Shown here: one piece after another, positions 683-64,000 of the stretch | Numbering within the stretch: position 1 is the stretch's first letter | Layout of the letters: the number at the start of each line of letters is the position of its first letter | Source of the DNA: a virus | Taxonomy: Duplodnaviria > Caudoviricetes | IMG/VR virus record: IMGVR_UViG_3300026549_000050 | Location: 51,302 to 115,301 of that record | Length of the DNA stretch: 64,000 nucleotides | Strand: one strand, 5' to 3' | Made by a program: the position numbers and the translations under genes | The notes under the pieces: generated by a model | Told to the model about the DNA's origin: nothing | The model's input: the letters and a program-made list of their open reading frames with translations, nothing else | Databases searched by the model: none

Positions 683-1176
683 TGACAAAAGTAAGGGATT
701 GTAGTGATATTGGTGTTAATGCACAATATATTATAAAACGACTTTTAGCAAATCAGAATTTGTTAAAATTACTTTATTATACTGATAAAGACCCACTTAA
801 TCATCCAGATTTGACTCAAGAACAAATACAAAAAGAAGTTTTTGAAAAATTAATTAAAATGGTGCCACGTGTTGGCCCTAAAGAGACAGCAAACTCATTA
901 GTTGTACTTAGAATCGCGCGCGGGCGTGGTTTAGCGCAAAATAATGAGTTTAAAAATGTTTCTATTAGTTTAGAAGTATTTGTTCCTATGACTCAATGGA
1001 TTATTAAGGATACTAATTTAAGACCTTTTGCTATCATGGGAGAAATTCAAAAATCTTTAAATGGAAAAAAGATTGATGGTTTGGGCAAAATGACTGGTGG
1101 AGATTTTGATTTAAACTTTTTAACTGAAGAAATTTCCGCTTATGAGCAAACCTTTATTTTAACTTCGTATGATTGA
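682..1176 (+). CDS. Putative tail completion/terminator protein
   Basis: 164 aa, translationally coupled (TAATG), positioned before tail tube genes. Confidence 0.45.
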   Translation: MTKVRDCSDIGVNAQYIIKRLLANQNLLKLLYYTDKDPLNHPDLTQEQIQKEVFEKLIKMVPRVGPKETANSLVVLRIARGRGLAQNNEFKNVSISLEVFVPMTQWIIKDTNLRPFAIMGEIQKSLNGKKIDGLGKMTGGDFDLNFLTEEISAYEQTFILTSYD

Positions 1177-1903
1177 TGATAGGGTTTTTCTTGGATTTCC
1201 GCTAGAGTTTAAAGATATATGTAAGGTATATCCCCCTACTGTAAATGATGTAAGTGGGAATAATCATTTTTATATATATCAATCGCTTTTCACTATGACA
1301 CAAGAAGAATTGGAAGATGCGTATTTAAAAGATGAAGTTTCTTACGTACCAACTCCATTTGAATATTTATTAATAAATTATCATCAAGATGAAGAAGTTA
1401 GAAGTTATATTTTAGAAGGCTTTCAAAAATTTCTTCGTGAACCAGTAACAATTGAACCTGAGATTAATATGATATTAATTGGTGTTGATGAAGAGCATTT
1501 GGATATAGAAAAAGATTTGGATAATCCAAGACTAATTACAGCAGAAAATTATTTTGAATTTCAAAATCTAATTCGGGCGGTTATGGGTGAAAGGCCAGTA
1601 GAGCCACCCGACCCCGACGAAGACCCGCGCATAAAACGCATCAAAGCAAAAGGACGTTATAGGGATAAATTAAAAGCAAAAAGACAACAAGGACCAAAAT
1701 TTGGAACTTTACTTGCTGCAATTTGCTGTATGGGAATAGGATTAACTCCACTTAATATTGGAGAGATGAGCTATGCCTGTGTTCAGTGGTTAATTGCTAT
1801 GGAACAACAACGTGAGTCTTATGATGTTGATATCCGTGCTTTACTTGCGGGCGCAGACAGTAAAAAAGTTAAACCAAAATATTGGATTAAAAATATAAGT
1901 TAA
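1169..1903 (+). CDS. Phage tail-module protein (possible tail assembly chaperone)
   Basis: 244 aa, overlaps previous gene, located in the tail operon. Confidence 0.4.
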   Translation: MIDDRVFLGFPLEFKDICKVYPPTVNDVSGNNHFYIYQSLFTMTQEELEDAYLKDEVSYVPTPFEYLLINYHQDEEVRSYILEGFQKFLREPVTIEPEINMILIGVDEEHLDIEKDLDNPRLITAENYFEFQNLIRAVMGERPVEPPDPDEDPRIKRIKAKGRYRDKLKAKRQQGPKFGTLLAAICCMGIGLTPLNIGEMSYACVQWLIAMEQQRESYDVDIRALLAGADSKKVKPKYWIKNIS

Positions 1904-1933
1904 ATTTTTAAAAAAATTAGGAGGCTATTTAAT

Positions 1934-2833
1934 ATGGCAAGTATTCTTGATAAATATGGTATTAAAGAAGTTGCTGACGTAGTGTTCTATGAGTTAGACT
2001 CAAAGGGCGCACCTTCTGCTCCAGTACTTTATCTCGACACTCTTAAGGTTTCTACAATCGAGCAGAGTGCTGAGGTAGTTGATGCTACTGGTGGTAAAGG
2101 TAACGTTAAATTGATTTCTTGGGATACAAACAAGGAAGTTACAGCTACATTCGAAGATGCTCTGTTCAGCGTTAAGTCTCTCGCTATCATGTTTGGTGGA
2201 GAGGTTACAGACAATGCAGGCAATCAAGAAGTTCTTAAGACTGTTCCTTATAAGAGTGTAACAGCTGGAACCGGTGAATTTACTGTTGTAGTAAATGGTA
2301 CTGAGCTTCATATTGCTGATAATAAGGCTACTTATTTCAAGTATGTTGATGATAAGGTAGTTCCTCAAGAGGCTGCTGACCAAGATACAGAGTTTGTTAC
2401 ATTTGACATTCTCGATGCTACTACAAGCGCAGGTGGAAAGGCTATGGCTAATGGTCTTGAGATTAGAATCGACGCTTCGAAGTTCGGTGGAACTTATTAT
2501 ATTACTGGCGATACATATGCTAGAAATTATCAGTCTGGTAAGGACGAGTTCCTTCAGTTCATTATTCCTAAGGGCAAGGTTAGCTCCGAGGACCTCAGCT
2601 TAACAATGGAGGCCGATGGTGACCCAGCTACATTCACAATGAACGTAAATGTATTAAAGGCTGCTGATGGTTCAATGTTTAAGCTTGTTAAGTACACTCT
2701 CGCTGGTGGAGATACTAGTGATAAGAATAAGGGTGTTGCATCTGTTCTGAAGAACTATGATGATGAAGGCGTTGAAAATGCTGGATATGAAAGCGATGCT
2801 TATCCTGTAAGCGGAAGTCTTCCAACAGTATAA
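1934..2833 (+). CDS. Major tail tube protein
   Basis: Strong RBS (AGGAGG), high-expression codon usage, ATGGKGNVKLISWD and MEADGDPATF motifs typical of large siphovirus tail tubes, followed by a terminator. Confidence 0.7.
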   Translation: MASILDKYGIKEVADVVFYELDSKGAPSAPVLYLDTLKVSTIEQSAEVVDATGGKGNVKLISWDTNKEVTATFEDALFSVKSLAIMFGGEVTDNAGNQEVLKTVPYKSVTAGTGEFTVVVNGTELHIADNKATYFKYVDDKVVPQEAADQDTEFVTFDILDATTSAGGKAMANGLEIRIDASKFGGTYYITGDTYARNYQSGKDEFLQFIIPKGKVSSEDLSLTMEADGDPATFTMNVNVLKAADGSMFKLVKYTLAGGDTSDKNKGVASVLKNYDDEGVENAGYESDAYPVSGSLPTV

Positions 2834-2853
2834 TTAATACGATGATTAATTGG

Positions 2854-2881
2854 TGGGAAGGTGGAAACACCTTCCCATTTT
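2854..2881 (+). terminator. Intrinsic terminator after tail tube gene
   Basis: TGGGAAGGTG-GAAA-CACCTTCCCA followed by TTTT. Confidence 0.8.
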
Positions 2882-2942
2882 ACTTAGAAGTTATACGCAC
2901 TCGGCGGCCGGCCGTATTTGTGTGTGAAACGGAGATATATGT

Positions 2943-3743: not shown

Positions 3744-3768
3744 TTTTTAATTAACGTCATTTTTATTT
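3733..3768 (+). terminator. Terminator/attenuator-like hairpin before the tape measure gene
   Basis: ATGGCGTTAATT...AATTAACGTCAT stem followed by TTTTATTT. Confidence 0.5.
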
Positions 3769-3781
3769 GGAGGAGAAGATA

Positions 3782-21880: not shown

Positions 21881-24800
21881 ACTTGTGTCCTCTCTATTTG
21901 AGTTTGAATATATCCTTTATCATCTATTGAAGTTATTAACTCTACCAAATGATGAGGAGTGTTTTTGTACTTCTTTGCAATATAATCACTATCTCGTCTA
22001 ATTCCGGTTACAATAATTTTATTACCTCGCGAAAGCCAAGATTTTTCAATTACCTTCTTTGTTCCGTCTGGTCTTTTTTCAGATACTTGTCTATCATAAT
22101 GAGTGAACGCATCACCAAATATTTTTACGGTAACTACGCTATCATTAGTTAATAAAGTTACAGTTTTCTTATTTTTATCTTTATCTAATACTGTACCAGC
22201 TATTCTACTAATTTTAAACAAAGGAATCTTTTGTCCCGTTTCTTTTGATTTAAACTCATAGTTAACGACTGGATCTTCCGGTAGTTCACTAAATTTAACC
22301 AAACCATATAAACCATTTTTTAGGTCGGTTAGTTCATGTTCGTGGATATAACAAGATATTGCATCCATTTCCCATTTACTAACAGTTCCTAAACAATATT
22401 TGTCCCATAAGTCTTGTCTTAGTCTATTATTAATGGCATTTAATAATTCTTCATTGTTTTTTTGAATGAATGGACGTATAATATCCATATGCTTTTTATA
22501 TATTTTATCCCATTCAGTCTGCTTAATTAAATAAAACAATCCATCTGTACTATCAGTTGATGGAATCAATAAATCCATATCAAAATGTTGACTATAGAAA
22601 TTTAATGCTATATCATCTAAACCGTAGTATACTTCTTTTTTAAACTTCTTTACATATTTGTTGAAGTTATAAACCTTGCATTGTAGTTCATATTCTTCTG
22701 GGATAAGATTAAAATCTATTAACATCTTCATGTTTTGAAGTGTTACTCTTTTCTTTTTGTCTGCAATTAAGTCAATATAAGTATTCATCGCATCTATGCG
22801 GTCGCCGCTGTATAGACCGTCAAAAGCGCCCGCCTTAATCAAATTAATCATTTGAGGCTTATTAATTTTTACCTTGTTAATAAAATCTTCAATTGAACTA
22901 TAAGGTCTATTGTCTATAATTTGACGCACTATTTCATCACCGACTTTAGTGATACCACTTAATCCGTATATAATTCTATTTCTATCTACGTCTGGCGCGA
23001 ATGTATATTTAGATTTATTAATATCGGTTGCAACAATTGATACACCTTCGTGTTTCATTTTACCTATGGCTATTGCTATTTTTCCATAATTTTTCTTAGA
23101 TACCTTCTTCCGTGTCGTGGCGGTAGACTCATCAGAATCGGTTTCTTCATCGTCATTATCGTCTTCAAAAACTCCCATTGATACATCATCAAAGGTTTCC
23201 CAATCAAAGTCTCCACTTGTTTCTTCGTCATTTGTGTCATCTCTTTCATTTCCTCCACTATCTGAGATTAAACAAGCGCAATCCCACAAAATCGTTGGAT
23301 AACGATAAGCAAGATTTAATTCTTGTAATCCAATTAGTGAATAAGCAAGCGTGTGAGATAAGTTAAATCCATAGCCTTTACTCATGGCAATTAATACGTT
23401 CCACACATAAGTACAAAGTTGCTTATTTAAACCCTTCTCTTTTATTACTTCAAAATACTCTTCGGTTAACTTCTCATATTCTGCTGGATTCTTTTTAGCA
23501 ATTGACTTTCTTAATTTATCCGCCCAAGTCAAATCAAAACCGCCAAGTTCTGGCAACTGTACTAATTGCATAAATTGTTCTTGAGCTATACATAAGCCAT
23601 AAGATACATCAAGAACTGGTTCTAATATATCTTTTGCCTCTTTATTTAATCCATATTTTTTTAATTCATAGTCCCAATCAGATGGGTGAGCCTTAAAACG
23701 CGCCAGTTTATTAACTGGCATTTCTCCTCCTTTTTCTGTTGCCATTAGACGAATTGCTGAGTTAAGAATCGCCAAGTCGTCTACTGATGTTGGTTTCATC
23801 GCGGCTATACCACTAATGCCAGATTGTTTTTCCATCTGGAATAAGCTCATTACCTTATGTTCCCAACACATCTGCCACATTTCTGGAGCTTCACGCTCAA
23901 GATTATAAATACCAATAATTTTTTCGTATGTTTCTTTTAATGTTGGTTCTGCCACTTCATAACCATATTCACATATGAGGTCAATACAATTATGAATTTT
24001 ATCTAAAGCCTCAACAGAGAGGATATCATATTTGATAAGTCCCGTATCTTCTGCGTCATGGAGGTCGAATTGAGTTATGATTTCACCTTTAGGTGCGCGC
24101 ATAAGCGCGGTTGATTCTGTGAATGGCTCATCGACAAAGATAACTCCACCCGCATGAATACCACAACCATTTATAAGTCCCTCAATTCCTTGAGCTACCC
24201 TCCATACTTCTGGATAGTTCTCTTCCATTTCTGTGCGGAACTGATAAGATGGCGCCATGTCATTATCGGGGTCACCATAGAATGTTTGCTTTAAACTTCT
24301 TTGTTGTCCTCTGTCTGCTTGAACGAATGAAGATAAGTAAGCAGATATGTCACTGTCAATTCCTAAGCCACGACAAGCCGTCTGGATTGCAGAACGAGCC
24401 TTTTCTGTCTTTAAAGTTAATACGTTAGCTACCCTATCTTCTCCATATATTTGACGAAAACTTTTTAATACGTCTGCGCGCCGGCCGCCCTCGATGTCTA
24501 TATCTACGTCAAGAACCGACACGCGCTCTGGGTTGAGAAATCTCCAACGTTTTGTTTGACTCTTTTCTCGAAGTGGGTTTATTTGAGTTATACCCAAAAG
24601 ATATAATAAGATAAATCCTACTCCAGAACCACGGCCGCATCCAACGAGAGTTCCTGCATCCCAACAGGCATCAATTATGTTTTGAAGATTTAAGAAGTAT
24701 GCACTCCATCTACTTCCGTTTACTTCAGAGGATATCCAAGTATCTTCAAGACACGCATTTATTTCATCATATGTAGCTTCATTCTGAAGAGTTTCATCAC

Positions 24801-26158: not shown

Positions 26159-27913
26159 TTAAAACCCCAATGTATTGTCTTCAATTTGATAGTTAGATAT
26201 GAAGATTTGGCTGGTATAATTACCCATCCACTCATTTAAATTTGCTCTACCAACTACCTCCAATTTTACCTCGTTAAATTTATCAAGTTCAGCAATCATA
26301 TCTTTTGCATGGAATTTCATATAAGCAATTCCGAATTTTTCTATTTTAATTGTGTCTTGATTTTTACCCATAATTCTAATATCATTTTTAGTTATATTAA
26401 TATCTTTTATGTGAATTAAAGGCTCTGGATTACCCTGTCCCCAAAGATTTTCGTGTAAAGCGATATTCATAATTAAATCTTCAAGGTCTGTATCCGCTGC
26501 GATGCGTTCAAAGTTTACTTCATATGAGGACTCACCAAAATCTACATCAGCTAGTTCCTTATTGGCATATTCGTGAAAAGCTCCTAAGTTTTTATCATAT
26601 ATGCCAATTCCACAAGCATTATCGTGTCCTGCGGTAAAGGTAAAGAAACCACTCTTATCCATAAAGTCTTTAAAAGAAGTAAGTTCAGATTCGTTAAGTC
26701 CACGACTTGAGCCTTTAATTTCTCCCTCATCGTTTAGTCTGGCTACAATAGTTGGTTTTTGATATTTTGCCGCGAGCTTCATAGCACAAAGTCCATTGAG
26801 TTCAGGTGGGAAATCCTCATCATCAAGTCTGACAAATAAAATTTTATTTTCAAGCAAATTATATTTATGTATCTTAATTTCTAATGTTTCAACCGCTTTA
26901 TCAAGTATTCTATTTTGCTTAGCTCTTGCGTTGGTACACTCTCGCGCAGACTCGATAGCAAGTTCCTCCATAGTTCCTTTAGCACCACGCTTGTTGCTCG
27001 GTACCATTTTGTGTCCATCTATAAAAGCTTCAAAACATCTGTATTTTTCGTCTTCGGCGCCGGCGCGAATCATAGCATTAATGAGCGGAGTTATATAGAA
27101 AGCTACTGTTATTGGAGTAACCTTGTCACCCATTGAAAACGATTGTTTTTCGCATAGGGCTTTGAAGAAATAGTTATTTATATTTTTAAAACCAGTGTGA
27201 ACGATATACCGATTTTCAAGAGAAAGCATAGACATCATATCACTAACTATACCAAGTGCCGCGAGGTCGATATATTCATTTGCATAGTCTGTGCCATAGA
27301 AGTTATCCATATATCTACAGAACTGCCAAGTAACTCCTGCACCACAAAGGTCTTTATTTTTATATTCTGGAGAAAGTTGGTTATTAATGATTACTGCGTG
27401 GTCTGAGAACTTGGTATCAGGTTCGACAATATGATGGTCTAAAATTAGACATTTTACGCCGTCAGCGCCCAAGCGTTCGATATATTCATAATCATTACTT
27501 CCGGCATCGGGGATTACGACATATTTGATATTGTGTCCTTTATCAATTAAGGCATATATCTTTTCAATTGTATCTGACAAACCATGACCTTTTCCATCGT
27601 GTAGAATATAATCAAATTGTACTTTACTATTTTGTTTACGCATATACTGTACGAAAATAGATGCAGAAGTGAAACCGTCTACGTCACTGTCTGCTATTAC
27701 AACTATATAGTCATTTTCAGTTAATAGAACTACCATTTCATCAAACATTTGTGCGCCTTTTTCAATATGGTCTAAAAGTTTTGGATTTTGTAAGGCACTA
27801 TCGTCTGGTACGTTAAGGAAATAGTTTAGTTCATCTTGGGTAAGTCCACGCTCCATTAAAAGTTCGTTTGTATAGTTTTCTCTTATATCTTTATTCACTA
27901 ATTTGGTCTTCAT
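26159..27913 (-). CDS. recJ: RecJ-like ssDNA exonuclease (DHH family)
   Basis: DSDVDG, ILDHH, DLAALGIVSDMM, GSSRG, AGHDNACG motifs. Confidence 0.9.
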   Translation of the reverse strand: MKTKLVNKDIRENYTNELLMERGLTQDELNYFLNVPDDSALQNPKLLDHIEKGAQMFDEMVVLLTENDYIVVIADSDVDGFTSASIFVQYMRKQNSKVQFDYILHDGKGHGLSDTIEKIYALIDKGHNIKYVVIPDAGSNDYEYIERLGADGVKCLILDHHIVEPDTKFSDHAVIINNQLSPEYKNKDLCGAGVTWQFCRYMDNFYGTDYANEYIDLAALGIVSDMMSMLSLENRYIVHTGFKNINNYFFKALCEKQSFSMGDKVTPITVAFYITPLINAMIRAGAEDEKYRCFEAFIDGHKMVPSNKRGAKGTMEELAIESARECTNARAKQNRILDKAVETLEIKIHKYNLLENKILFVRLDDEDFPPELNGLCAMKLAAKYQKPTIVARLNDEGEIKGSSRGLNESELTSFKDFMDKSGFFTFTAGHDNACGIGIYDKNLGAFHEYANKELADVDFGESSYEVNFERIAADTDLEDLIMNIALHENLWGQGNPEPLIHIKDINITKNDIRIMGKNQDTIKIEKFGIAYMKFHAKDMIAELDKFNEVKLEVVGRANLNEWMGNYTSQIFISNYQIEDNTLGF

Positions 27914-28073: not shown

Positions 28074-29120
28074 CTATCTTATTTTTACCCTCCTATTATA
28101 GAGTTTCCAAAAGACATCTGGACCCTTATCGGTAGGGCTGTCTTTTAACTCTAATAAATCTTCTCTATCGTATATAAATGAGAAATCAGCATAGGTTGAA
28201 TACTTTTTTCCCATTTGATATAGCTTGTTAAAATAATCTTCTTTACCAGGCTCTTCCTCTTTATCAAAGCAAATTACGATCTCTCGCGGATGCGCTGTTT
28301 GCATTAGAAGTTTCAAAGCGTGTTTGTTGAACTGGCTTCCGCATACTGCGGCAGAGCAGTTTGCGAAATCCCAGCCTTCCATTTGAAGCACAGACTTCTC
28401 TGCTTCGACCAAAAAACAAACACCCGTTCGTTTAATGTTTTCTTTAGTCCAATTTAGACCATATAGATTTAATGAAAGCGGATGGCTATACCATTTACCT
28501 TCAATTTGTACTGGAAGATATTTTCCTACGTTTTCAACCTCCCATTCGTTGAGGGCGCGCCCTCGAATACCAACAAGTTCTCCATCTGGATTATAGTGAG
28601 GTATTATGATTTTGTTTTGCGGTGGCGAATAGCGTATGTTAAATTTATCCATAGTCTTTTTTGTAATACCGTCGTTTAACCATTCTTTAGGATAGAACTT
28701 AGTAAAACATTCTATTAGTCCGTTTGGATATGTTGGTAATTTTACACGCTCGGGCGCCCTATACATATCACGTACACGTTGATACTTATTCGGCGCGAAG
28801 CCTTCGTTTGGTTTAAAGTTACTACAGTCAAGAATGACTTTATATATATCTTGATACCAGTCATAGTCAATATTCCGGTTGGTGTAATAGGTCTTGAGAA
28901 AGGTAAAGATATTCATCACGCCTTCCTCTGTATAGCACATAAACATATGACTATTGAAATAATAATATAGTTTTAAGCTTCCACCTTCTTCATTATGGCA
29001 TATGGTATTTGTAATAAAATATCCTGGTTTTTCAATTACTTCTTCTGCACCAAGCGCATATAATAATTCTTTTATTTTTTCAGGTTGTAATTCTTCAATA
29101 ATAGTTTTATAATCAATCAA
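28074..29120 (-). CDS. DNA primase (DnaG-like)
   Basis: Zn-binding CH...C region, IIIPH...GIRGR, TOPRIM LVEAEKS and CFD. Confidence 0.8.
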   Translation of the reverse strand: MIDYKTIIEELQPEKIKELLYALGAEEVIEKPGYFITNTICHNEEGGSLKLYYYFNSHMFMCYTEEGVMNIFTFLKTYYTNRNIDYDWYQDIYKVILDCSNFKPNEGFAPNKYQRVRDMYRAPERVKLPTYPNGLIECFTKFYPKEWLNDGITKKTMDKFNIRYSPPQNKIIIPHYNPDGELVGIRGRALNEWEVENVGKYLPVQIEGKWYSHPLSLNLYGLNWTKENIKRTGVCFLVEAEKSVLQMEGWDFANCSAAVCGSQFNKHALKLLMQTAHPREIVICFDKEEEPGKEDYFNKLYQMGKKYSTYADFSFIYDREDLLELKDSPTDKGPDVFWKLYNRRVKIR

Positions 29121-30687
29121 CTATTTCACCATTATTTAACCTTTCTATAATTACTTTTAGATGTTCATCTTCATGCTCATCCCAACTTTTAATTTTATAT
29201 TCGTCTCGTTCATTAAAACCTTCAATCGGGTCCATTCGAGAATCTGTTATGAATAAATCTCTCTTTTTAAGTGTGCCTAAATTCATATCAGACCAAATAC
29301 GAACTTGCGTCCATTCGCCACTTCTGACTTTAAATATATCAGTTACTAAATTAGGTTTATTCTCTGGTTTATTCTCGTAAAGTGGCTCTAATATCTCTAA
29401 TTCTTCTTTTGTTGGTCGCGCCATTATCGCACCATTATCTGCTTTATTAATTGTACTACGACCTCCCGCCAAAGCTCCTTCATTTCGTATGTCTTTGTTT
29501 TCATCACCTTTTGCATTTAACTGTGTTGATGTAAACATTGCTACATCTAATTCAACAGCTAAGTCTTTTAATGCAGTTGCAAACATTAATAATACTTCAT
29601 CATTTCTTAAAGCAAAACCTCTAAACTCATTTAACAATGACGGACCGATGAATACATAGTCATAAAATACATAACCTATATCGTGTATAATACAATTCTC
29701 TCTTACAATTGTTTTAACCGATTCAATTGTTGGGTTCGGCATTTTAACTAAAATTAAGTTTTCAGAAAACTTTTCCATCAAATGAATAGCTTGAGTTATT
29801 ACTGCTCTTTCTCTATCGGAGAAATCTGCATATTTAAATCTACTTCTATTTATATCAGTTAAATAAGCCAATATCATTAGTCTAACTTCTTTAAATCTTT
29901 GCTCTGTTACGATGAATAAAACTTTTTCGCTATTTCCCTCTTGTTCCCACTCACAAGTTGTAGAGTTATATCTAAAAGGATAAGCCAAATAACAAGCATC
30001 AGCTATTGCGTTAGAAGTTTTACCTACACCACTCGCGGCGGAACGTATAGTTAAAGTTCCTTTTTTAGCACCATCAATAACCTGGTTAAAAATAGAACCT
30101 TGTATTGATACTCCTATTTCGTAGGCGGCGCCGAGTTGACCAATCAACTCTTCCATTTTCTCTGCGGCGGATTCAACTTCTATTTCATCTGTAGTTTGAT
30201 ACTTGGCTTCAACGCCTAAAAGTTTCTTTCTAACCGTATCAGTTATTTGTTTCGGACTTAAGAAGTTAAAGTTTTCATTTATTTCTTGAGCCTTTGGATT
30301 AGTTAAATCTTCACAATAAAACTCGCCTATATCAAAACCTTGATGTTGAAGGTCTTTTAATAGGTTAAACATTTTAAATCTATTATAATAGAAGTCAAAG
30401 TTATCAACTTCTGATAATTCAATTATATCTTGTAAGTATTCAATACCATTTTTATCTTTAAAGACTTTCGCAGAAACTTGGTCTGCCTCTAAAAAGTTCT
30501 CTATATCTATAGGTTGTATCTTGGTTGCGCCGTTGCGATACAAACCATTAATCGCCATATATATAGAACGTTCAAATCTTGTTGGAAAGTCAGTTAAAAT
30601 AAAAGAATACTTATCAATTTCACTTAATATCTGCGGTCGTTTCATTAGACAACCGAGTATTTGTTGAGTATCTCTTTTATCAATCAT
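29113..30687 (-). CDS. Replicative DnaB-like helicase
   Basis: Walker A AASGVGKT, VFYDY Walker B, TSTQLN, KVRSG. Confidence 0.85.
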   Translation of the reverse strand: MIDKRDTQQILGCLMKRPQILSEIDKYSFILTDFPTRFERSIYMAINGLYRNGATKIQPIDIENFLEADQVSAKVFKDKNGIEYLQDIIELSEVDNFDFYYNRFKMFNLLKDLQHQGFDIGEFYCEDLTNPKAQEINENFNFLSPKQITDTVRKKLLGVEAKYQTTDEIEVESAAEKMEELIGQLGAAYEIGVSIQGSIFNQVIDGAKKGTLTIRSAASGVGKTSNAIADACYLAYPFRYNSTTCEWEQEGNSEKVLFIVTEQRFKEVRLMILAYLTDINRSRFKYADFSDRERAVITQAIHLMEKFSENLILVKMPNPTIESVKTIVRENCIIHDIGYVFYDYVFIGPSLLNEFRGFALRNDEVLLMFATALKDLAVELDVAMFTSTQLNAKGDENKDIRNEGALAGGRSTINKADNGAIMARPTKEELEILEPLYENKPENKPNLVTDIFKVRSGEWTQVRIWSDMNLGTLKKRDLFITDSRMDPIEGFNERDEYKIKSWDEHEDEHLKVIIERLNNGEIVD

Positions 30688-31208
30688 TCATCGTCCTCTA
30701 AATCATCTAATGCACTAAAATCCACTTCAAACTTACGAGGTTTAATATCTTCTTTTTTAACTATTTGTTGTTTTCTCTCTGCGGCGGCGCGCATCTGATA
30801 TTCAATCTCGTTAACAACACCTTTGCTTTCTTTTTCTCTTAAAGCCCAATAAGTACAGGACTCATTATATATATAAGGGATAATTCCAAAACCGCCATGT
30901 CCCTTATCCCAATCTCCATGCTTAATTTCATAAAAATATTTTAACGCAAAAAAGATGCCTTTATTCGTCATTTTGTGTTCTTTCACAAATTTCTCCCTCT
31001 GTGCTTCACACATATGGTAGTTGTATGAAACTTTGAGGTCGCGCGAGATAAAGTCATATATATATGCTTTATATTCGTTATCAGTAGCCGGAGTTGCCTT
31101 TTTCCAGTCTTGATAACATTTTCTGTGATAATACCAGTTTGTTACTGGCTTCACCCAATCATCGTGTTTTTTATCAATTTCTATATCGCAAATTCTACAC
31201 TTCGCCAT
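30684..31208 (-). CDS. Zn-finger replication-associated protein (possible helicase loader/inhibitor)
   Basis: CRIC...HRKC, GIIPYIY; lies between AAA ATPase and helicase. Confidence 0.5.
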   Translation of the reverse strand: MAKCRICDIEIDKKHDDWVKPVTNWYYHRKCYQDWKKATPATDNEYKAYIYDFISRDLKVSYNYHMCEAQREKFVKEHKMTNKGIFFALKYFYEIKHGDWDKGHGGFGIIPYIYNESCTYWALREKESKGVVNEIEYQMRAAAERKQQIVKKEDIKPRKFEVDFSALDDLEDDE

Positions 31209-33673: not shown

Positions 33674-36025
33674 TTAAAAAATTAACAGTCCGACCACCTT
33701 AGAATTTGAAAGTTTAATTGACTTTGTACCTTGCGCCCCTTTGGATAGTAGATTTACTTCGTTTAAGTTGATTTTTATCTGCGCATTGGAAGCAACTACG
33801 ATAACTTCCTGTTCGTTAAGTAGTGGATTGAAGGAAATTAATCTGTCGTCGGTATCTTTAAGAGCGTGGATTTTACTTCCTTTAGTTCCACGTCCTGTGA
33901 CGGTAAACTCTTTCGCAGCAGTTCGTTTTATATATCCCTTTTCGCTTATGCTTAGAAATTCTTTAGTATCTTTTGGTATAGCCCGTGCTTCAACTAAAGA
34001 GTCTCCATCATTAAGGGTTATTCCCTTAACTCCCCTTGCTACTCGTCCAATCGGACGAATATCCTTTGTTTCACAAATTACGAACTGGCCGCGCGCCGTC
34101 AACATACCAACTCGCTCTTCATCTACAAAAAGAATTGACACAATTTCATCGTCGTTATCAAGATTTAGAGCCTTAACACCACCTTTGCGTTTGGTGTTAT
34201 ACTCTGAAAGTCTACTCTTTTTTAAAATACCTTTTTTCGTGAAAAAGATTATGTGTTCTTTTTGGTTCTTTTTGTTTAAGAAAACGAGTTCTTCAATTTT
34301 TTCGTCTGAGCTGGTTTCGGCTATACTTTCGATTGGGATTACCTCTTCAAAAGGAAGGTCGGATGCGGTGATACTGAAACAATTGCCTTTATTTGAAAAC
34401 AACAGAACTGTATCGAGATTAGTTCCCGATGCAGTAGCAATTACATATTCACCTTTGCTCATTTTGAATTTGTTTCCTACCCCACCGCGTCTTTGAGTAT
34501 AAAGAGTTGATGTGGTGGTAACGTATAGGTTATTTTGGTTTGACAGATTAATTAAAAGTTCCTGCTTTTCAGTAGGTTCTTCTTCATCTGTTGCGATGTT
34601 GAGAATTTGAGTTCTACGTGCGTCGCCAAATTTGTTAGCCACTTCACGCCAACCGTTGATTAGCTCTTGGTTGAATAACTCTTCATTTCTAATTATATTA
34701 TAGATAAAATCTCTTTCTTTTTCAAGTTTTGATTTTTCAGATTTTAACTTTTCTACTTCAAGGTGTGCCAAACGCGATAGCTTCATATCGAGAATGGCTT
34801 TAGTTTGTACGTCAGTAAGTTTGTACTCGGCGGCCAGTCGCTCGCGCGCCTTCAACGGAGACTCCGAAGATTTGATTATACGGACTACTTCGTCGATATT
34901 TGCGAGACAGATTAGAAGTCCTTCAAGAATATGGAGGCGGTCTTCGATTTTTTTAATGTCAAATTCGAAGCCACGCATATATACTTCTTTTTCGTGGTCG
35001 ATGTGCGCTTGGAGCATTTCTTTCCAAGTGAAGACTTTTGGAAAGCGACCTTTATCTAACATTGTAAAGTTAATTCCGTAGTGAGACTCAAGTGAAGTAT
35101 TTTGGTAGAGATACTTGAGGACTTTGTTTGGATTAGCTTTTTTAGTTAGGTAGATTTTAATTAGTGGAGTTTTTCCAGTGAGGTCGTTAAAACGGTCTAC
35201 GCCTGGATTTTCTTCACTATTTATTATATCTTCTAATTGACCGCAGATTGTATTGGTGTAAACTGAGTATGGTATTTCAGTTACTACAAAACAATTGTCT
35301 TTTTTATCGTATTCGACTACGCTTCTTAATTTACAAGCAAAACCAGTACCGTGTTTCATAGCATCTTTAACGGTATTTTCGTTTAATAATACTGCACCTG
35401 TAGCAAAATCTGGGGCGATGTAGATGTCTTCGAAATCACAGTCTGGATGGAGAAGAAGATATTCTAACTTCTCATTCATTTCTTTTAAATTATACTGTGG
35501 TATGGAGCAAGCCATACCGATGCCAATTCCTGTACTACCGTTACAAATGTTGTAATAACCTTTTGTTGGTAGAACCGCTGGGTATTGTTTTGTATTGTCA
35601 TAACTATCGCGCCATTCTTCTATTGTGTCTTTATTTATATCTGTAAAAAGAATGTTTGATAATTTAGAAAGTCTACTTTCTGTATAACGCATCGCGGCCC
35701 AGTTGCCAGATTCGATGAGTGAACCAGCATTACCTTTTACGTCAATTAGTGGATAACGCATAGCAAATGGCTGTCCCGCACGCATTATAACACCTTCACA
35801 CGAGCTGTCTCCGTGAATGTAGAAGTCTGCCATAGCCATACCAACGGCGTTGGCGGTTTTCTTATATGGCTTATCGCTTGTTAGTTTATTTAAAAGCATT
35901 GAATAGAATATTTGACGTGCGGAGGGTTTTAAACCATCGCGCACATCAACGAGGGCGCGGTTTTGAAGAACTGCACCAGCGTATTGTACGAAACTATCTT
36001 CTATAATTGGTTTTAATTTACTCAT
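33674..36025 (-). CDS. gyrA: Type IIA topoisomerase subunit A (gyrase-like)
   Basis: DGLKP, HGDSS, AAMRYTE catalytic Tyr, QRRGGVG GyrA-box, beta-pinwheel repeats (GRVARGVKGI, GRGTKG). Confidence 0.9.
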   Translation of the reverse strand: MSKLKPIIEDSFVQYAGAVLQNRALVDVRDGLKPSARQIFYSMLLNKLTSDKPYKKTANAVGMAMADFYIHGDSSCEGVIMRAGQPFAMRYPLIDVKGNAGSLIESGNWAAMRYTESRLSKLSNILFTDINKDTIEEWRDSYDNTKQYPAVLPTKGYYNICNGSTGIGIGMACSIPQYNLKEMNEKLEYLLLHPDCDFEDIYIAPDFATGAVLLNENTVKDAMKHGTGFACKLRSVVEYDKKDNCFVVTEIPYSVYTNTICGQLEDIINSEENPGVDRFNDLTGKTPLIKIYLTKKANPNKVLKYLYQNTSLESHYGINFTMLDKGRFPKVFTWKEMLQAHIDHEKEVYMRGFEFDIKKIEDRLHILEGLLICLANIDEVVRIIKSSESPLKARERLAAEYKLTDVQTKAILDMKLSRLAHLEVEKLKSEKSKLEKERDFIYNIIRNEELFNQELINGWREVANKFGDARRTQILNIATDEEEPTEKQELLINLSNQNNLYVTTTSTLYTQRRGGVGNKFKMSKGEYVIATASGTNLDTVLLFSNKGNCFSITASDLPFEEVIPIESIAETSSDEKIEELVFLNKKNQKEHIIFFTKKGILKKSRLSEYNTKRKGGVKALNLDNDDEIVSILFVDEERVGMLTARGQFVICETKDIRPIGRVARGVKGITLNDGDSLVEARAIPKDTKEFLSISEKGYIKRTAAKEFTVTGRGTKGSKIHALKDTDDRLISFNPLLNEQEVIVVASNAQIKINLNEVNLLSKGAQGTKSIKLSNSKVVGLLIF

Positions 36026-36228: not shown

Positions 36229-38088
36229 TTACTCCCTCACTTTCGAAAAATCTACCTTTTCCATTATAAATTCTTTTCGTGGTTCTACCGCTTCACCCAT
36301 TAAATCATAAAGCAAATTAACCGCAGTATTATTCCACTCCAGCACATCTAATCTCTGATGTTCTGGACTAAACATCGACGCTTGCGCTGTCTCTGCCGGA
36401 AGTTCACCAAGACCTTTCGCTCTCGTAACTTCTCCCTTTACTTTACTTCTAACCCTATTAAACTCATCATCAGTAAAGTAATATTCTTCTTTTCCTTTAT
36501 TATTTACTATATATAATGGTGACCGCAACCAACACAGTCTACCTTCTTTTATAAACTCTGGCGCGAGATATTGTAGTGCTGCCATTATTAATAACGCTAT
36601 GTGCGCGCCATCACTATCAGCATCGACACAAATACCAATGCGACCGTAACGCAATTTTGAAGCATTGTATTTACCTGGAACTATATTCATCGCACTTAGT
36701 AATAACTTAATTTCTTCATTATTAAATATCTTTTCTTCTGGATTGGAAAGACAATTAATAATTTTACCTCTGATTGCAAGCAGACCATATTTTGTGTAGT
36801 CGCGCGCTTGTGCCATACCACCCATAGCGGAGTTTCCTTCTACGATTAGAAGCGTTGCGTTCTGTCCGAGGAACTCTGCGTCTTTGAGTTTATCAGAGGC
36901 GAAAACTTTTTTCTTTTGATTTTTTTCAATTTCTTTTGAGGCTTCAAGGACTTGTTTGCGCGCCCGCTCTGCGGCACGCTCGGCTTTCAACTCTTTAGTT
37001 AGAAGTTCTACTATTTGATTAAATTCACTTGGATATCTACGTGAAAAATCATCAAGCATTTGAGTAGTACATCTTTGCGCGAGCCCTCGTAATTCTGGAT
37101 TTGTAATTTTTGATTTGGTCTGTCCGTCATAAATTGGGTTTTTTAAATTAACAGAACAAATATAAACTAAGCCTGCGCGCACTACATCGCCAGAACCTAA
37201 ATCTTTAACTTTCTTTTTAAAGAAATTAGTTAACGCTGTTTTGATTCCGGTAATTGGCGTACCACCGTTTTCATTTTCTCCACCATTAGAAAAAAGATAA
37301 AATTTCTCTCTACCTGTTGTCCAGTTAAGAATAATCTCAATATCAATATCGTCTTCTGTGGTTTTAAGATGAATTGGGTTTTTATGTATGCGCTTTTGAA
37401 CTTTTGTATCCGCAAAATCCATTAATCCGTTTTTACTTAAATATTTCTGTTTCTTTTTAGTTTTTGCGTCAGTGACGATAAATTCAACACCTTTGTTAAA
37501 ATAAGAATATTCCTCTATAATATTGCATATTTCTTCAAAATTAAAATTAACGGGTTCTGCGTTAAAAACTTCCTGACTTGGTTTATATTCAATATATGTT
37601 CCTTGTTTTTGATTATTAAGTGGTTTCTTTTGACATTTATCCCATTTAGGAATACCTTTATCAAACTCCATGTACCATTCCGCGCCATCTCGATAGCTTG
37701 AAATCTTAAACCAATCAGAAGAACAACAAGTTGCTGCGCTGCCTGTCCCATTGAGTCCTCGTGACTTGCCGCCGTATGCATTGTCGTCGAATTTCGCGCC
37801 CGAGTGGTTTTCTGTCAAAAGGTTTATCATCACTTCTTCAGAAAAATCATTTGGGCCATGTGGCATACCACGCCCATAGTCTCGACAGCTTGCCCAGTCA
37901 GGACCAATGGTTATTTCAATTTTATTTGCGGTAGGGCAAACTAAAGCTTCATCAGTTGCATTATTTACTAACTCTAAAAGCCCCGCAATTACTCCTGTGT
38001 GGTCTGCGGAGCCGAGATAAATACCGATACGTTTTTGAACTCCCTCTCTAAATGTTAATTGCTCTACAGATTGAGCATTATACTCCAT
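36229..38088 (-). CDS. gyrB: Type IIA topoisomerase subunit B
   Basis: GHKL ELVNNATDE, DYGRGMP, HSGAKF, GLNGTG; TOPRIM EGNSA, RGKIIN, DADSDG; KGLGE. Confidence 0.92.
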   Translation of the reverse strand: MEYNAQSVEQLTFREGVQKRIGIYLGSADHTGVIAGLLELVNNATDEALVCPTANKIEITIGPDWASCRDYGRGMPHGPNDFSEEVMINLLTENHSGAKFDDNAYGGKSRGLNGTGSAATCCSSDWFKISSYRDGAEWYMEFDKGIPKWDKCQKKPLNNQKQGTYIEYKPSQEVFNAEPVNFNFEEICNIIEEYSYFNKGVEFIVTDAKTKKKQKYLSKNGLMDFADTKVQKRIHKNPIHLKTTEDDIDIEIILNWTTGREKFYLFSNGGENENGGTPITGIKTALTNFFKKKVKDLGSGDVVRAGLVYICSVNLKNPIYDGQTKSKITNPELRGLAQRCTTQMLDDFSRRYPSEFNQIVELLTKELKAERAAERARKQVLEASKEIEKNQKKKVFASDKLKDAEFLGQNATLLIVEGNSAMGGMAQARDYTKYGLLAIRGKIINCLSNPEEKIFNNEEIKLLLSAMNIVPGKYNASKLRYGRIGICVDADSDGAHIALLIMAALQYLAPEFIKEGRLCWLRSPLYIVNNKGKEEYYFTDDEFNRVRSKVKGEVTRAKGLGELPAETAQASMFSPEHQRLDVLEWNNTAVNLLYDLMGEAVEPRKEFIMEKVDFSKVRE

Positions 38089-38591: not shown

Positions 38592-39093
38592 TACCTTCCA
38601 TATCTGTAAACTCCCAAGGATAATCGCCTTTGCTTAGTCTTTCCGCACATTTGTCACAGAATGGACTTATCCAACCAACAGACAATTTTGTTGCTGGGCG
38701 GCCGCACTCGATACAAGTTTTATGGGATAGTTTTTCATATTTGCTGATTATTTCGTATCCTTTTTCTGTGTTACCGTTGTCATACCAACGTAGACTACCA
38801 TATTTTTCTTTTATTTGCATTATCCTATATCCATCAAGATAATTTGTTTTGATAAGTTCTTCTCTCAGTTCCTCACATAGTTGTTCTCCGAACTTGGCGC
38901 GCCAGCCATTAGGCATTGCATCGAGTTCAGTATAAGAATATGGAGCGGTATACCACCACCCTATATGTTTATTTTTTCGTTTGTTCCAAACAACTTTACC
39001 AGTCCAACGATTACGCGGAATAAGAAATGGATACTGCTTACAAAGTTTCTTGTTTTTCATTTTAATTTGTTTCTTTTTAATTCGTTTATTCAT
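38578..39093 (-). CDS. Conserved phage hypothetical protein (QxKEKxGxLRxY family) with Zn-ribbon
   Basis: QIKEKYGSLRWY, CIECG...CDKC. Confidence 0.65.
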   Translation of the reverse strand: MNKRIKKKQIKMKNKKLCKQYPFLIPRNRWTGKVVWNKRKNKHIGWWYTAPYSYTELDAMPNGWRAKFGEQLCEELREELIKTNYLDGYRIMQIKEKYGSLRWYDNGNTEKGYEIISKYEKLSHKTCIECGRPATKLSVGWISPFCDKCAERLSKGDYPWEFTDMEGIENV

Positions 39094-39154: not shown

Positions 39155-39215
39155 ATTTGAAGTTTTGAGTAATTTTATGGTCGGCCGCGAAAGTACGTAG
39201 GAAGTATTTGGTTTT

Positions 39216-42787: not shown

Positions 42788-42817
42788 ATTCTATCAATTT
42801 TATTGGCTTTTTGTCAA
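42788..42817 (-). promoter_or_regulatory. sigmaA-type promoter
   Basis: TTGACA-18-TAGAAT with TGA extension. Confidence 0.6.
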
Positions 42818-61563: not shown

Positions 61564-61572
61564 CCATCTGCC

Positions 61573-61603
61573 GAACAGATATGCAAATATCTGTTCTTTT
61601 TTT
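61573..61603 (+). terminator. Intrinsic terminator
   Basis: GAACAGATAT-GCAA-ATATCTGTTC-TTTTTTT. Confidence 0.85.
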
Positions 61604-61700
61604 GGCAAAATTTACGCTCGGCCGCCGAATACAATCAACTTCTTATAATAATTTCTGTAAAAATCTACTTAATTAAGGAGAAGATATATTTTTTATGTAA

Positions 61701-62036
61701 ATGGAGGTACATATGAATAACGGAACAAAAATTAGAACAATACTTGTTATTGCATCCTGTCTCAATACTGCTCTTCTTGCTACAGATGTAGCACAGTTTG
61801 GCAACGAGACAGTTAATCTTATCTATCAAATTCTTTCTGTACTTGCAAACTTTGTAATTGTATTCTGCGCCACATGGTTTAACAATGACTACACAGAAGA
61901 GGCTTGTATTGGTACGGGAGTAACTCGTCAGCTTAAAGCTGAAAGCAAAGACAACTATGTAGGCGATTATTTTTATCAAGACGATGAATATGCAGAGTTT
62001 GATAATGAAAATATGGAGGAAACAATAGATGAATAA
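61701..62036 (+). CDS. Holin (SPP1-like)
   Basis: GTKIRTILVI...two TM helices...WFNND; probable start 61713; precedes endolysin. Confidence 0.75.
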   Translation: MEVHMNNGTKIRTILVIASCLNTALLATDVAQFGNETVNLIYQILSVLANFVIVFCATWFNNDYTEEACIGTGVTRQLKAESKDNYVGDYFYQDDEYAEFDNENMEETIDE

Positions 62037-63564
62037 GGCTTTATATAAACAAGCCGATTCCCGTTGGGGTTCTAAACCTTACCCAACGAAAGCTTCATCT
62101 TTTGCTGGCAACGGGTGCGGCTGCTGTGCTTGTACGCATCTTATTATTGAGCAAGATAAATATAAAAATTATACACCGGAAAATATTCGTCCCTGGATGG
62201 TTAAACAAGGATTTGCCTATGTTAACCAAGGTACAACCTGGAATGGTATTAAGTTAACTCTTGAACATTACGGCTATAAAGTTGTTCATATTGGAATAAA
62301 CGACCCAATGACTAAAGCTTGGACAGAATTAAATAAGGGTAATCGTATGGGAATTATTCTTTTCCTTGGCGGAAAAGGACCAGATGGTACAATTTGGACT
62401 ATGGGTGGTCACTATGTTGCTTTTACAGATTATTATGTAAAAAATGGAAAGCATTATTTCTATACTAAAGATAGTGGCTCACGCAATCGCGATTCTGCAA
62501 AAAATGGTTATTATACTTATGAAGGTTCGATGAAGGGCTTAATTTACCAAATGTGGATTGTAGAAAAGCCAAAAGCTATAGCAACTTCTGCAACAAAAGT
62601 TACAACCAATACTTCTTCTTCTGTGACGGGAGTATTTGATAAGACAAATGTAAAAGCCTTACAAAAACTTTTCGGTACAACTCAAGATGGAATCATTAGT
62701 GGACAATTGGCTTCTTTAAAACAATATCACAAAGGTTTTAAAAATTGTATTAAATATGGAACGGGTGGTTCTGCGCTTGTTAAGGCGATTCAGAAATATT
62801 TAAATATGTCTGGACCAGACGGTTATCTTGGACCAAATACTATAAAAGCAATTCAAAAATTTGTAGGAACTACTGCTGATGGTATTTGGGGAGAATATAC
62901 TTCTAAAGCTGTTCAAAACTGGATTATAAAAAATCCAACCTTACCTCAAAAAAAAACTAACACAACTAAAATAAAAGGTATGGATGTCAGCACTTGGCAA
63001 GGGAATATTAGCAAAGCCAATTTTGAAAAAGCCAAAGCATCTGGTATTGAATTTGTAATTTTAAGAATAGGTTATACTGGAAGTAAAACCAATAAACCTA
63101 CGATAGATGACACTTTTGAAAATAATTATAAAAATGCTATCGCGGCGGGATTACCAGTTGGTATTTATTATTATTCATTAGCAACAACAGAAGCTAAAGC
63201 AAAAGAAGAGGCTAACTTTTGCATCTCTAAATTAAAAGGTAAAAAAATTACTTATCCAGTTTATATCGACGTAGAGGATCCTAGTAAGCAAGCAAAACAG
63301 TCTAAAGCTACTTTGGCGGCGGTGTGCAATGTATTTTGTAATACCATCAAAGCTGCAGGTTATAAGCCAGGTGTTTATGCTAGTTTAAGCTGGTTTAACG
63401 ATAAGATTGGCAATATTACAGCAAATCATTCTAAATGGGTAGCTCAATATAATAAAACTTGTGATTACAAGGGTACATATGACATATGGCAATATAGTTC
63501 TTCTGAGGCTGTTCCAGGCATTGGTAATAAGGTTGATGTAAACTGGTGCTATAAGAAATTTTAA
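62029..63564 (+). CDS. Multidomain endolysin: C39-like peptidase, PG-binding repeats, GH25 muramidase
   Basis: YKQADSRW...GCG...GHYV; DGIISG/DGYLGPNT/DGIWG; GMDVSTWQG, YIDVED, WQYSS, VDVN. Confidence 0.85.
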   Translation: MNKALYKQADSRWGSKPYPTKASSFAGNGCGCCACTHLIIEQDKYKNYTPENIRPWMVKQGFAYVNQGTTWNGIKLTLEHYGYKVVHIGINDPMTKAWTELNKGNRMGIILFLGGKGPDGTIWTMGGHYVAFTDYYVKNGKHYFYTKDSGSRNRDSAKNGYYTYEGSMKGLIYQMWIVEKPKAIATSATKVTTNTSSSVTGVFDKTNVKALQKLFGTTQDGIISGQLASLKQYHKGFKNCIKYGTGGSALVKAIQKYLNMSGPDGYLGPNTIKAIQKFVGTTADGIWGEYTSKAVQNWIIKNPTLPQKKTNTTKIKGMDVSTWQGNISKANFEKAKASGIEFVILRIGYTGSKTNKPTIDDTFENNYKNAIAAGLPVGIYYYSLATTEAKAKEEANFCISKLKGKKITYPVYIDVEDPSKQAKQSKATLAAVCNVFCNTIKAAGYKPGVYASLSWFNDKIGNITANHSKWVAQYNKTCDYKGTYDIWQYSSSEAVPGIGNKVDVNWCYKKF

Positions 63565-63574
63565 GGAGAAACAT

Positions 63575-64000
63575 ATGTTTGAAAAATTAACTAACTTATT
63601 GCGTGGTGTAAATATTACAGGCGCCGCGGCAGCTCCTAAAAAAAGCATTGATGACTTAGCTATTGAAGTAATTAATGGATTGTGGGGAGCTGGAGAGACA
63701 AGAAAAAAAGCTATTACACAGGCTGGGTATAACTATGATACAGTTCAAAATCGTGTTAATGAGCTTGTTAAAACAATGCAAACTAGAGTACAAGCTATGA
63801 AGCCCTGGTTTGATGCTTGTAAAACACAAGAACAATGGTCATATGATGCAAGATATAATTGGGGCAAATGGACACCAAGAAATATTGCCAAAAGTAAAGA
63901 CTATGGCACTTGTATCACTTTCCCTAATGTTATTGCTATGCGCTGTAAATTAATCGCAGAACCCGCTCAACATATTTTAACTTCCTCCGGTTCAGACAAT
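63575..64000 (+). CDS. CW_7 (Cpl-7) cell-wall-binding domain protein, truncated by window end
   Basis: AAGGAG RBS; KSIDDLAIEVINGLWGAGETRKKAITQAGYNYDTVQNRVNEL; not in ORF track because it has no stop in the window. Confidence 0.8.
   Translation, partial: MFEKLTNLLRGVNITGAAAAPKKSIDDLAIEVINGLWGAGETRKKAITQAGYNYDTVQNRVNELVKTMQTRVQAMKPWFDACKTQEQWSYDARYNWGKWTPRNIAKSKDYGTCITFPNVIAMRCKLIAEPAQHILTSSGSDN

Follow-up and report, generated by a model that had tools for sequence, protein, structure and literature searches.

Pure-G/C runs are a lineage-wide, DNA-level feature of an AT-rich phage lineage with a gyrase-like topoisomerase

Short blocks made of G and C only are strongly over-represented in an AT-rich phage genome and in its relatives. 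The stretch under analysis (the window) is 64,000 nucleotides long and corresponds to bases 51302-115301 of a phage record (IMG/VR record IMGVR_UViG_3300026549_000050; Caudoviricetes) that is complete at 115,301 bp and has short terminal repeats. A run is defined here as a maximal uninterrupted stretch of G/C only, and runs were counted at thresholds of at least 8 nt and at least 10 nt. The window, with a G+C content of 35.0%, contains 68 runs of at least 8 nt and 28 of at least 10 nt, for which an independent and identically distributed (iid) null gives 9.5 and 1.3, and a third-order Markov null 38.7 and 8.4. When synonymous codons are permuted inside each gene, keeping every protein and the codon usage of each gene (the codon-shuffle null), 18.8 ± 3.4 and 4.0 ± 1.5 runs are expected (z = 14.4 and 15.8). 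An earlier note on this DNA, made from the letters alone, had counted by hand about 40 runs of at least 8 nt and more than 20 of at least 10 nt; the excess is borne out, although the hand count was too low, and all eleven of its example coordinates hold unbroken G/C runs of the size claimed. The excess is a DNA-level, strand-symmetric and frame-independent property of one deep phage lineage.

The full 115,301-bp genome has 127 runs of at least 8 nt and 48 of at least 10 nt, and coding DNA holds 101 of the 127. The G/C fraction at third codon positions (GC3) is 0.248 overall and is still 0.258 for codons beginning with two G/C, so that the G/C wobbles in runs are contrary to the genome's habit, as the earlier note had maintained. 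The hexamer GCGCGC occurs 25 times in the window, where 3.6 copies are expected. A/T runs show no excess in this genome. Upon identical treatment, a 50-kb stretch of T4 (34% G+C) gives 2 runs against 2.8 expected, and one of SPO1 (41% G+C) gives 5 against 7.6. By megablast, a 20-kb part of the window found no match among GenBank phages. Runs at 2902, 39182 and 61619 had been placed between genes, and all three are confirmed to lie between called open reading frames (ORFs). The earlier note had also thought amino-acid content alone an unlikely explanation of the runs. This is supported, because the counts lie far outside the codon-shuffle null (z 14.4-15.8) and some of the sites are conserved in relatives; the feature acts at the DNA level.

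Anatomy, lineage and conservation of the runs

Runs are found in spacers and in genes of either orientation, with a density between genes twice that within genes. GCGC and CGCG are over-represented in all three reading frames (1.3-2.6x), and enrichment is about equal on the sense and antisense strands (GGCGCG 4.0x vs CGCGCC 3.2x; GCGCGCC 8.7x vs GGCGCGC 11.7x). Maximal runs of 4-5 nt are below the null, and the surplus starts at 6-7 nt and rises with length. It is runs of at least about 6-7 nt, rich in GC/CG steps, that are enriched. There are two main word types, GCGCGC/GGCGCGCC and (G)CGGCCGC(C), in blocks of about 7-15 bp, while words with GG/CC steps are depleted (CCCGGG 0.05x, GGGCCC 0.18x, CCCCCC 0.28x). 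Word enrichments, taken from 1.06 Mb of pooled clade coding DNA against the codon-shuffle null, are as follows:

GCGCGC, 5.4x
CGGCCG, 4.5x
GCGGCCGC, 8.6x
GGCGCGCC, 10.9x
CGGCCGCC, 12.8x

The probability of a G/C wobble stays at about 0.27 until at least five G/C in total flank it and then climbs to as much as about 0.7; with exactly two G/C on each side it is 0.28, not raised. Wobble G/C in adjacent codons is barely correlated if the intervening bases are A/T (phi 0.019, against 0.080 if both are G/C), and an over-dispersion toward fully G/C sites is seen.

Several simpler descriptions of the unit were tried and rejected. GCGC is not the unit, since copies flanked by A/T number 59, close to the 56 expected. 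GGCC in isolation is rarer than expected (18 vs 50); WGGCCW (W, A or T; a HaeI-type site) is down to 0.36x genome-wide, and GGCC inside longer G/C runs is enriched. The runs are not cores of broad G+C-rich patches, because the flanks drop to about 0.37-0.39 G+C within a few bases (beyond about 6 nt). These flanks are 2- to 4-fold richer in CpG-containing tetramers (ACGT, CGTA, TCGA); general CpG clustering was rejected, as it is gone once runs of at least 5 nt are masked and CpG richness is confined to run flanks. Nor is palindromy the key, for palindromes of at least 6 nt within runs number 85 against 67-71 expected and palindromic hexamers have negative residuals. Insertions or mobile clusters were likewise rejected, the codons of runs facing gaps in relatives at 1.2% compared with 0.8% for other codons.

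All of 80 contigs anchored on the GyrA-like protein (50-87% identity) share the excess, with 1148 runs of at least 8 nt against 156 under the iid null, and it holds against codon shuffles. The excess is also present in a further 30 GyrA-anchored contigs (56-63% identity), many of which come from other sample series. The preferred words form dialects. In three contigs (L042, L043, L060), GCGC reaches 9-13x expectation and GGCGCG/GCGCGC is the obvious word. In two others (L037, L075), GCGC is eliminated (0 and 2 copies vs 12-14 expected), presumably through avoidance of an HhaI-type restriction enzyme, and an about 2x excess of runs of at least 6 nt persists, built from GCC/GGC words. In a group further removed, with GyrA about 34% identical, runs are in 8-12-fold excess and use GCGGCCGC/GCCGCC, with no GCGC excess. 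On the other hand, many AT-rich contigs that share only NrdD with this phage, some of them from the same sample series, are wholly devoid of runs. Since all gyrase-anchored contigs are run-rich and many NrdD-only AT-rich contigs are run-free, the trait appears to follow phage lineage, not habitat, across more than 150 related contigs.

Between the window and its relatives, synonymous sites are near saturation. Outside runs, the probability that a relative has G/C where the window has G/C is 0.33-0.38, against a baseline of 0.21-0.28 (conserved Ala, Gly, Pro and CGN-Arg), whereas the same codon classes inside runs retain a G/C wobble at 0.50-0.65 in every divergence bin. For identical peptides, the probability of a run in the relative is 0.48 if the window has a run and 0.12 if it has none, again in every divergence bin. 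Run occupancy at single sites in same-peptide relatives ranges from 0% to 100%, and many of the blocks have kept their positions. Of the 40 best-supported variant positions, none falls within a run, in keeping with the roughly 0.5 expected by chance.

Individual sites and co-varying genes

Sites of particular interest in the window are listed below.

915..63630, no strand: the dispersed set of 68 runs of at least 8 nt, 28 of them of at least 10 nt
2902..2914: intergenic run CGGCGGCCGGCCG, of the CGGCCGCC word family, with a terminator-like hairpin about 27 nt ahead of it and the next start codon 29 nt further on
24476..24490: GCGCGCCGGCCGCCC, at 15 nt the longest run of the window, within the gene for the PolC-like DNA polymerase
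27055..27067: 13-nt run with the near-palindrome CGGCGCCGGCGCG in the RecJ-like gene; run in 63% of 8 same-peptide relatives
28553..28562: primase-gene run with sense codons GGG CGC GCC CTC and alignment pattern GGG CGC GCN CTC
30781..30792: GCGGCGGCGCGC, 12 nt, in the gene for the 174-aa zinc-finger protein; run in 67% of 6 same-peptide relatives
34087..34098: run GGCCGCGCGCCG in the GyrA-like gene, sense ACG GCG CGC GGC CAG, peptide TARGQ
34843..34850: run CGCGCGCC in the GyrA-like gene, sense AAG GCG CGC GAG, peptide KARE; run in 82% of 17 same-peptide relatives
36958..36967: 10-nt run in the GyrB-like gene, sense GAG CGG GCG CGC; run in 58% of 19 same-peptide relatives
38696..38705: run GGGCGGCCGC, sense TGC GGC CGC CCA; run in 8/8 same-peptide relatives
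39182..39189: intergenic run CGGCCGCG in a divergent spacer, with AAAGTACGTA coming next
61619..61627: intergenic run CGGCCGCCG, with flanks TTTACGCT...GAATAC, just 3' of a terminator-like hairpin; TATAAT follows 16 nt further on

The site at 34087..34098 has a run in 88% of 34 same-peptide relatives, with the pattern GCG CGC GGY CAG in codon alignments. At the primase site, GGG is kept in 76% and CGC in 81% of aligned relatives, down to 50-60% amino-acid identity, yet GGG encodes just 5% of glycines genome-wide. In three relatives (L021, L024, L030) the primase run is not lost but displaced by one codon (CGC GGC CG).

There are 23 copies of CGGCCGCC in the genome, about 10 of them between called ORFs. 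Several of these intergenic copies share the flanks TTACG..CGGCCGCC..TACGTA, and three stand directly after terminator-like hairpins. The exact octamer is present in the window's runs at 2902 and 61619, and the run at 39182 reads CGGCCGCG instead. The intergenic copies with conserved flanks may serve gene regulation too.

A comparison of 26 NrdD-anchored phage records, 14 of them at least 90% complete and divided into run-rich and run-poor by locus counts, gives a short list of genes that co-vary with the trait and another of genes that do not:

GyrA-like: 10/10 run-rich, 0/16 run-poor
GyrB-like: 10/10 run-rich, 0/16 run-poor
174-aa zinc-finger protein: 10/10 run-rich, 0/16 run-poor
PolC-like polymerase: in run-rich, also in run-poor (53% identity in run-free G025, 52% in G021)
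RecJ-like exonuclease: in run-rich, also in run-poor
Primase: in run-rich, also in run-poor
dUTPase: in run-rich, also in run-poor

Over whole genomes, the gyrase-bearing records have 3-18 runs of at least 11 nt, while 13 of the 16 without gyrase have none. An error bias specific to the polymerase was rejected, because close PolC-like homologues are found in run-free phages. The co-varying genes lie in the window as follows:

30684..31208, minus strand: 174-aa protein with a predicted N-terminal Cys-rich zinc finger and a helical domain, between genes for a DnaB-like helicase and Sak4
33674..36025, minus strand: GyrA-like subunit, 783 aa, with a DNA_topoisoIV domain (PF00521) and GyrA C-terminal beta-propeller repeats (PF03989)
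36229..38088, minus strand: GyrB-like subunit, 619 aa, with PF00204, PF01751 and PF00986

Judged by these domains, a predicted gyrase-type type IIA topoisomerase is encoded alongside the runs, and residues 511-517 of its GyrA-like subunit read QRRGGVG, which resembles a GyrA box. Homologues of the 174-aa protein carry PF26927. The model of this protein (predicted local distance difference test score, pLDDT, 69.6) matches in Foldseek only RING/PHD-like zinc fingers at an E value of about 1, and the best VIA-align matches of the protein are DnaD C-terminal domains with Z scores of 5.4-5.8, which are below the trust level for helical proteins. In the model, the helical domain weakly resembles the DnaD C-terminal domain.

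Neither PF00145, PF01555, PF02086 nor Vsr was found in this phage (G000), that is, no C5, N4/N6 or Dam-type methyltransferase, and PF00145 (C5 methyltransferase) was also missing from 10 related records. A modification enzyme of the phage, one of the causes that the earlier note had offered, is therefore not encoded by it.

Some further features of these genomes were observed. The ORF at 3767-14233 (plus strand, 3488 aa) matches tape-measure protein families and would imply an exceptionally long tail. Homing-endonuclease-like genes on the minus strand (16379-17308, 41752-42732 and 42800-43204; two of the HNH family and one GIY-YIG) are scattered in the replication module. The tetramer GATC is about 7-fold depleted (34 observed vs 250 under the codon-shuffle null), and CTAG (0.45x) and CATG (0.59x) are also low; among relatives the GATC depletion varies from complete to absent, as expected under host restriction pressure. 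The RecJ-like gene of some related records has in-frame stop codons within otherwise full-length matches (TAG in G006, G011 and G013; TGA in G008, G009 and G015), and in-frame TGA also occurs in the primase and zinc-finger genes of G015 and the zinc-finger gene of G009, which suggests stop-codon reassignment in these six phages. The window itself reads cleanly under code 11. As for the host, the only match to the endolysin in the genome collection is a 27-kb contig (L083; CAMYVW010000006.1) in a metagenome-assembled genome (MAG) of an uncultured 'Tenericutes', a link too weak to be accepted. Its endolysin is 72% identical to that of the window (62029-63564), the contig is without a G/C-run excess, and the MAG has one CGGCCGCC in about 1 Mb; the contig is probably a different phage or prophage.

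Selection, mutational bias and other explanations

The reading preferred here, tentatively, is that the runs are the phage counterpart of the iterated words known as highly iterated palindromes (HIPs) and are kept by selection as dispersed sites on duplex DNA; it is quite possible, if still short of probable. Blocks would enter genes by way of synonymous and of tolerated non-synonymous codon choice, and spacers as well, and purifying selection would retain them for a structural or recognition role at dispersed places. Whatever reads the blocks, or makes them matter, might come from the replication module of the phage itself. Foremost among the candidates is the phage-encoded DNA gyrase, for which the runs might be preferred G-segment sites, or they might be blocks of great stability, prone to Z-DNA, in an AT-rich chromosome under strong negative supercoiling. 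The co-varying zinc-finger, putatively DnaD-like protein is the second candidate. Selection is favoured by the retention of sites, the persistence of a codon-shifted run, the replacement of words where GCGC is banned, the restriction to a lineage and the lack of depletion of near-runs. As to the last, runs with a single W interruption stand at 1.14-1.27x in the pooled clade coding DNA, which argues against a strong conversion process completing near-runs. A more specific proposal is that the hundreds of stable, partly Z-prone G/C blocks of this gyrase-carrying gut/rumen phage lineage act as dispersed topological sites, either for gyrase entry or as supercoil-absorbing or -limiting elements that would organise the AT-rich chromosome for replication and packaging. 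This proposal is doubtful.

Several observations weigh against selection and its candidate readers. The 0.12 frequency at which run-permissive sites without a run in the window have one in relatives is about six times the approximately 0.02 expected from independent wobbles at a baseline G/C3 of about 0.26; new blocks thus go on appearing anywhere. The spacing of runs is Poisson-like (coefficient of variation 0.93-0.95, 0.95 in the window; about one run per 0.9 kb) and not periodic, periodicity being among the checks that the earlier note had proposed, and no preferred position of runs within genes was found. The more G/C-only codons adjoin a wobble position, the more often it is G/C, in a gradual climb (0.26, 0.35, 0.45, 0.60). 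For the 36 G/C hexamers, log enrichment is described by dinucleotide steps (x2.4 per GC and x1.8 per CG relative to GG/CC; R2 0.74), and enrichment follows nearest-neighbour stacking energy at r = -0.86, which is as compatible with a physical or mutational cause as with a structural function. Among one-off variants, the transition GCGCGT is at 0.78x and the transversion GCGCGA at 3.1x, and in the GGCGCC family the values are 0.87 and 1.46; had selected sites simply decayed, transition variants should be commoner than transversions, which they are not. Many words are enriched and no single palindromic one is dominant, so that the set is degenerate.

The gyrase is open to objections of its own. 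T4 has a type II topoisomerase, yet the run excess is absent from it, and a gyrase-less 161-kb record (G030, locus L158) has 10 runs of at least 11 nt, none of them in the 23 kb around NrdD. G+C phased at about 10.5 bp is not detectable around 2006 distinct runs (±60 bp), where the period-11 amplitude is at most 0.7%, like that of other periods. With phased flanks undetected and the lineages few, the gyrase link stays a correlation on few independent lineages. Of the gyrase idea put forward in the earlier note, the co-occurrence stands (10/10 vs 0/16), while the 10.5-bp phased flanks that it leads one to expect were not seen.

The strongest rival is a neutral context-dependent mutation or repair bias, by which blocks would accumulate and persist without function; this is possible, although on the less likely side. 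G/C in stable blocks might be lost more slowly, owing to less breathing and less cytosine deamination, an effect perhaps accentuated by hyper-negative supercoiling. Alternatively, mismatch repair linked to a host methyltransferase might restore G/C, as in Elhai's model for HIP. Such a bias would accommodate much of what was just held against selection: hexamer enrichment following stacking (r = -0.86) and steps (R2 0.74) with palindromy unfavoured, wobble G/C graded with local G/C context, the gain of runs at permissive sites (0.12) far over the null, Poisson-like spacing and the failure to find a defined motif or reader. The scarcity of transition variants (GCGCGT 0.78x vs GCGCGA 3.1x) is what repair of T:G mismatches predicts, and HIP over-representation has itself been seen as a possible repair by-product (Elhai, 2015; PMC4390886). 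General chemistry, however, should hit all AT-rich phages, whereas T4, SPO1 and many NrdD phages show no excess, and two phages (G025, G021) are run-free despite a polymerase close to that of this phage. Further points against the neutral bias are the unraised wobble with exactly two flanking G/C per side (0.28), the undepleted single-W near-runs, the span of run occupancy from 0% to 88% among same-peptide sites, the persistence of the codon-shifted primase run, and the preference of sub-lineages for different words. Nor does the phage encode a methyltransferase (C5, N4/N6 or Dam) or Vsr, or the 10 related records a C5 enzyme. The context-dependent mutation bias raised in the earlier note is thus a live rival on account of the stacking correlation, which does not show it to be the cause.

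A mixed origin is unlikely. According to this explanation, the intergenic words alone would be functional, as operators or promoter elements of a phage regulator, and the coding copies would be spill-over or chance look-alikes; the functional set would comprise CGGCCGCC with TTACG...TACGTA flanks, and GCCCGGGC-type palindromes by LexA-like boxes in the early region. It would suit the extended flanks shared by intergenic copies, their position just after terminator-like hairpins and upstream of genes, the arrays of GCCCGGGC-type runs at about 1-kb spacing in G006 and G011, and the intergenic density at twice that in coding DNA. Nevertheless, 101 of the 127 runs are coding, CGGCCGCC is 13-17x over the null in coding DNA alone on both strands, and the GCGCGC-type words that dominate coding runs are without the intergenic flanks. 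Moreover, CCCGGG, the core of the early palindromes, is at 0.05x in coding DNA, so that the early-region palindromes and the coding runs are different sets. In the early region (genome 30-41 kb, upstream of the window), intergenic GCGCCCGGGCGC-type palindromes lie between a TTTCGTACAA-like element and a LexA-box-like GAAC-N4-GTTC, and similar palindrome arrays with about 1-kb spacing occur in G006 (36-49 kb) and G011 (61-73 kb).

It is very improbable that the runs are Chi-like sites for recombination or nuclease attenuation, read by a host enzyme of the AddAB/RecBCD type. Chi sites of low-GC Firmicutes are G/C-rich (AGCGG, GCGCGTG), the density of about one run per kb would be suitable, and the phage has recombination genes (Sak4, RecJ-like, RuvC-like); but Chi is a single asymmetric word in one orientation, whereas many words are enriched here equally on both strands, and neither AGCGG (0.81x) nor GCGCGTG (1.7x on 3 copies) is enriched. 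Least credible of all is that the runs follow from protein composition, from a preference for certain codons or codon pairs or from pause clusters of rare codons, or that G/C-rich triplet repeats were inserted in frame or mobile G/C clusters came in: the runs do mainly encode Ala, Gly, Arg and Pro, and some are triplet-like, (GCC)n or (GGC)n, but the codon-shuffle z of 14-16, the enrichment in all frames, both strands and spacers, the adjacent-wobble phi of 0.019 with A/T between and the gap alignment of 1.2% vs 0.8% all speak against it.

Should selection maintain the blocks, they would be an unrecognised DNA-level constraint on phage coding sequences, possibly involving the targeting of phage gyrases. 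Should they be a mutational by-product, an unusually strong context-dependent bias would be tied to one replication system. Either way, analyses of codon usage, of the ratio of non-synonymous to synonymous substitution (dN/dS) and of host prediction in these phages are affected.

Comparison with known systems

The feature is real, lineage-wide and DNA-level, and its kind is known from cyanobacteria. No report of over-representation of G/C runs or GCGCGC in phages was found in the searchable literature, and a search for a phage nick consensus likewise gave nothing relevant. The iterated G/C-rich words of cyanobacteria have been known for decades without an agreed function, and a comparable case is now available in a small, fast-evolving phage lineage, which offers hundreds of related genomes, lineages that switch dialect, lineages that keep runs while banning GCGC, and a short list of co-varying genes. 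The topological-site reading, if true, would make this a viral, experimentally tractable counterpart of HIP1 and could reveal the function of iterated words.

HIP1 (GCGATCGC) is the highly iterated palindrome of cyanobacteria, for which selection and a role in chromosome structure have been argued (Xu, Lawrence & Durand, 2018; PMC5861425). Its over-representation has also been attributed to repair, with a cognate methyltransferase in the same genome (Elhai, 2015; PMC4390886). In both systems a short G/C-rich word is hugely over-represented in coding DNA (all frames) and in spacers, the sites and their codons are more conserved than the same codons elsewhere, and the debate is the same one between selection and biased repair. 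They differ in that the carrier here is a phage lineage rather than a cellular genome, that the words are purely G and C, and that a word family or any run rich in GC/CG steps takes the place of one octamer, with palindromy not required. HIP1 has a long-range periodic distribution of 10-90 kb (PMC5861425), whereas local spacing in the 115-kb phage genome is Poisson-like. Alternate HIPs include GGCGCC in Calothrix PCC 7103 and rCCGGy in Oscillatoria PCC 10802 (Elhai, 2015; PMC4390886), and GCsGC in a strain of Cyanothece whose number appears in the paper as both PCC 7822 and PCC 7122 (PMC4390886). As in those cases, (nearly) G/C-only words swap between the phage lineages, which use GCGCGC, GCGGCCGC/GCCGCC and GCGC-free dialects; the alternate HIPs, however, have a cognate methyltransferase, while none of the three main families, nor Vsr, is found in this phage.

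Gyrase cleavage maps show GxxC cores with 10-bp phased G+C flanks (PMC6379681, PMC12630141). Gyrase sites, such as the strong gyrase site of Mu, REP/BIME-2 and genome-wide cleavage sites, would resemble the runs in being dispersed, dyad-symmetric, degenerate duplex sites that are partly read by shape. A GxxC core is satisfied by GCGC and GGCC, which are contained in 70 and 52 of the 127 runs, respectively, and the trait co-occurs with a phage-encoded gyrase. Differently from gyrase sites, the runs have no detectable phased 10-bp G+C flanks, and isolated GCGC and GGCC are not enriched, the latter even being depleted.

Tracts prone to form Z-DNA are alternating d(GC)n, and negative supercoiling from gyrase would favour the transition from B to Z. 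The enrichment in these phages climbs with alternating GC/CG steps, and GG/CC-step words are depleted, although the enriched CGGCCG and GCGGCC are not strictly alternating and the tracts are short (8-15 bp). The GC clusters of yeast mitochondria and the palindromic elements of Rickettsia are mobile G/C-rich or palindromic inserts of 30-150 bp in AT-rich genomes. Like the GC clusters, the runs are sharp G/C-rich islands in an AT-rich genome that also occur inside genes; unlike them, they are only 8-15 bp long, replace existing codons and are not aligned to gaps.

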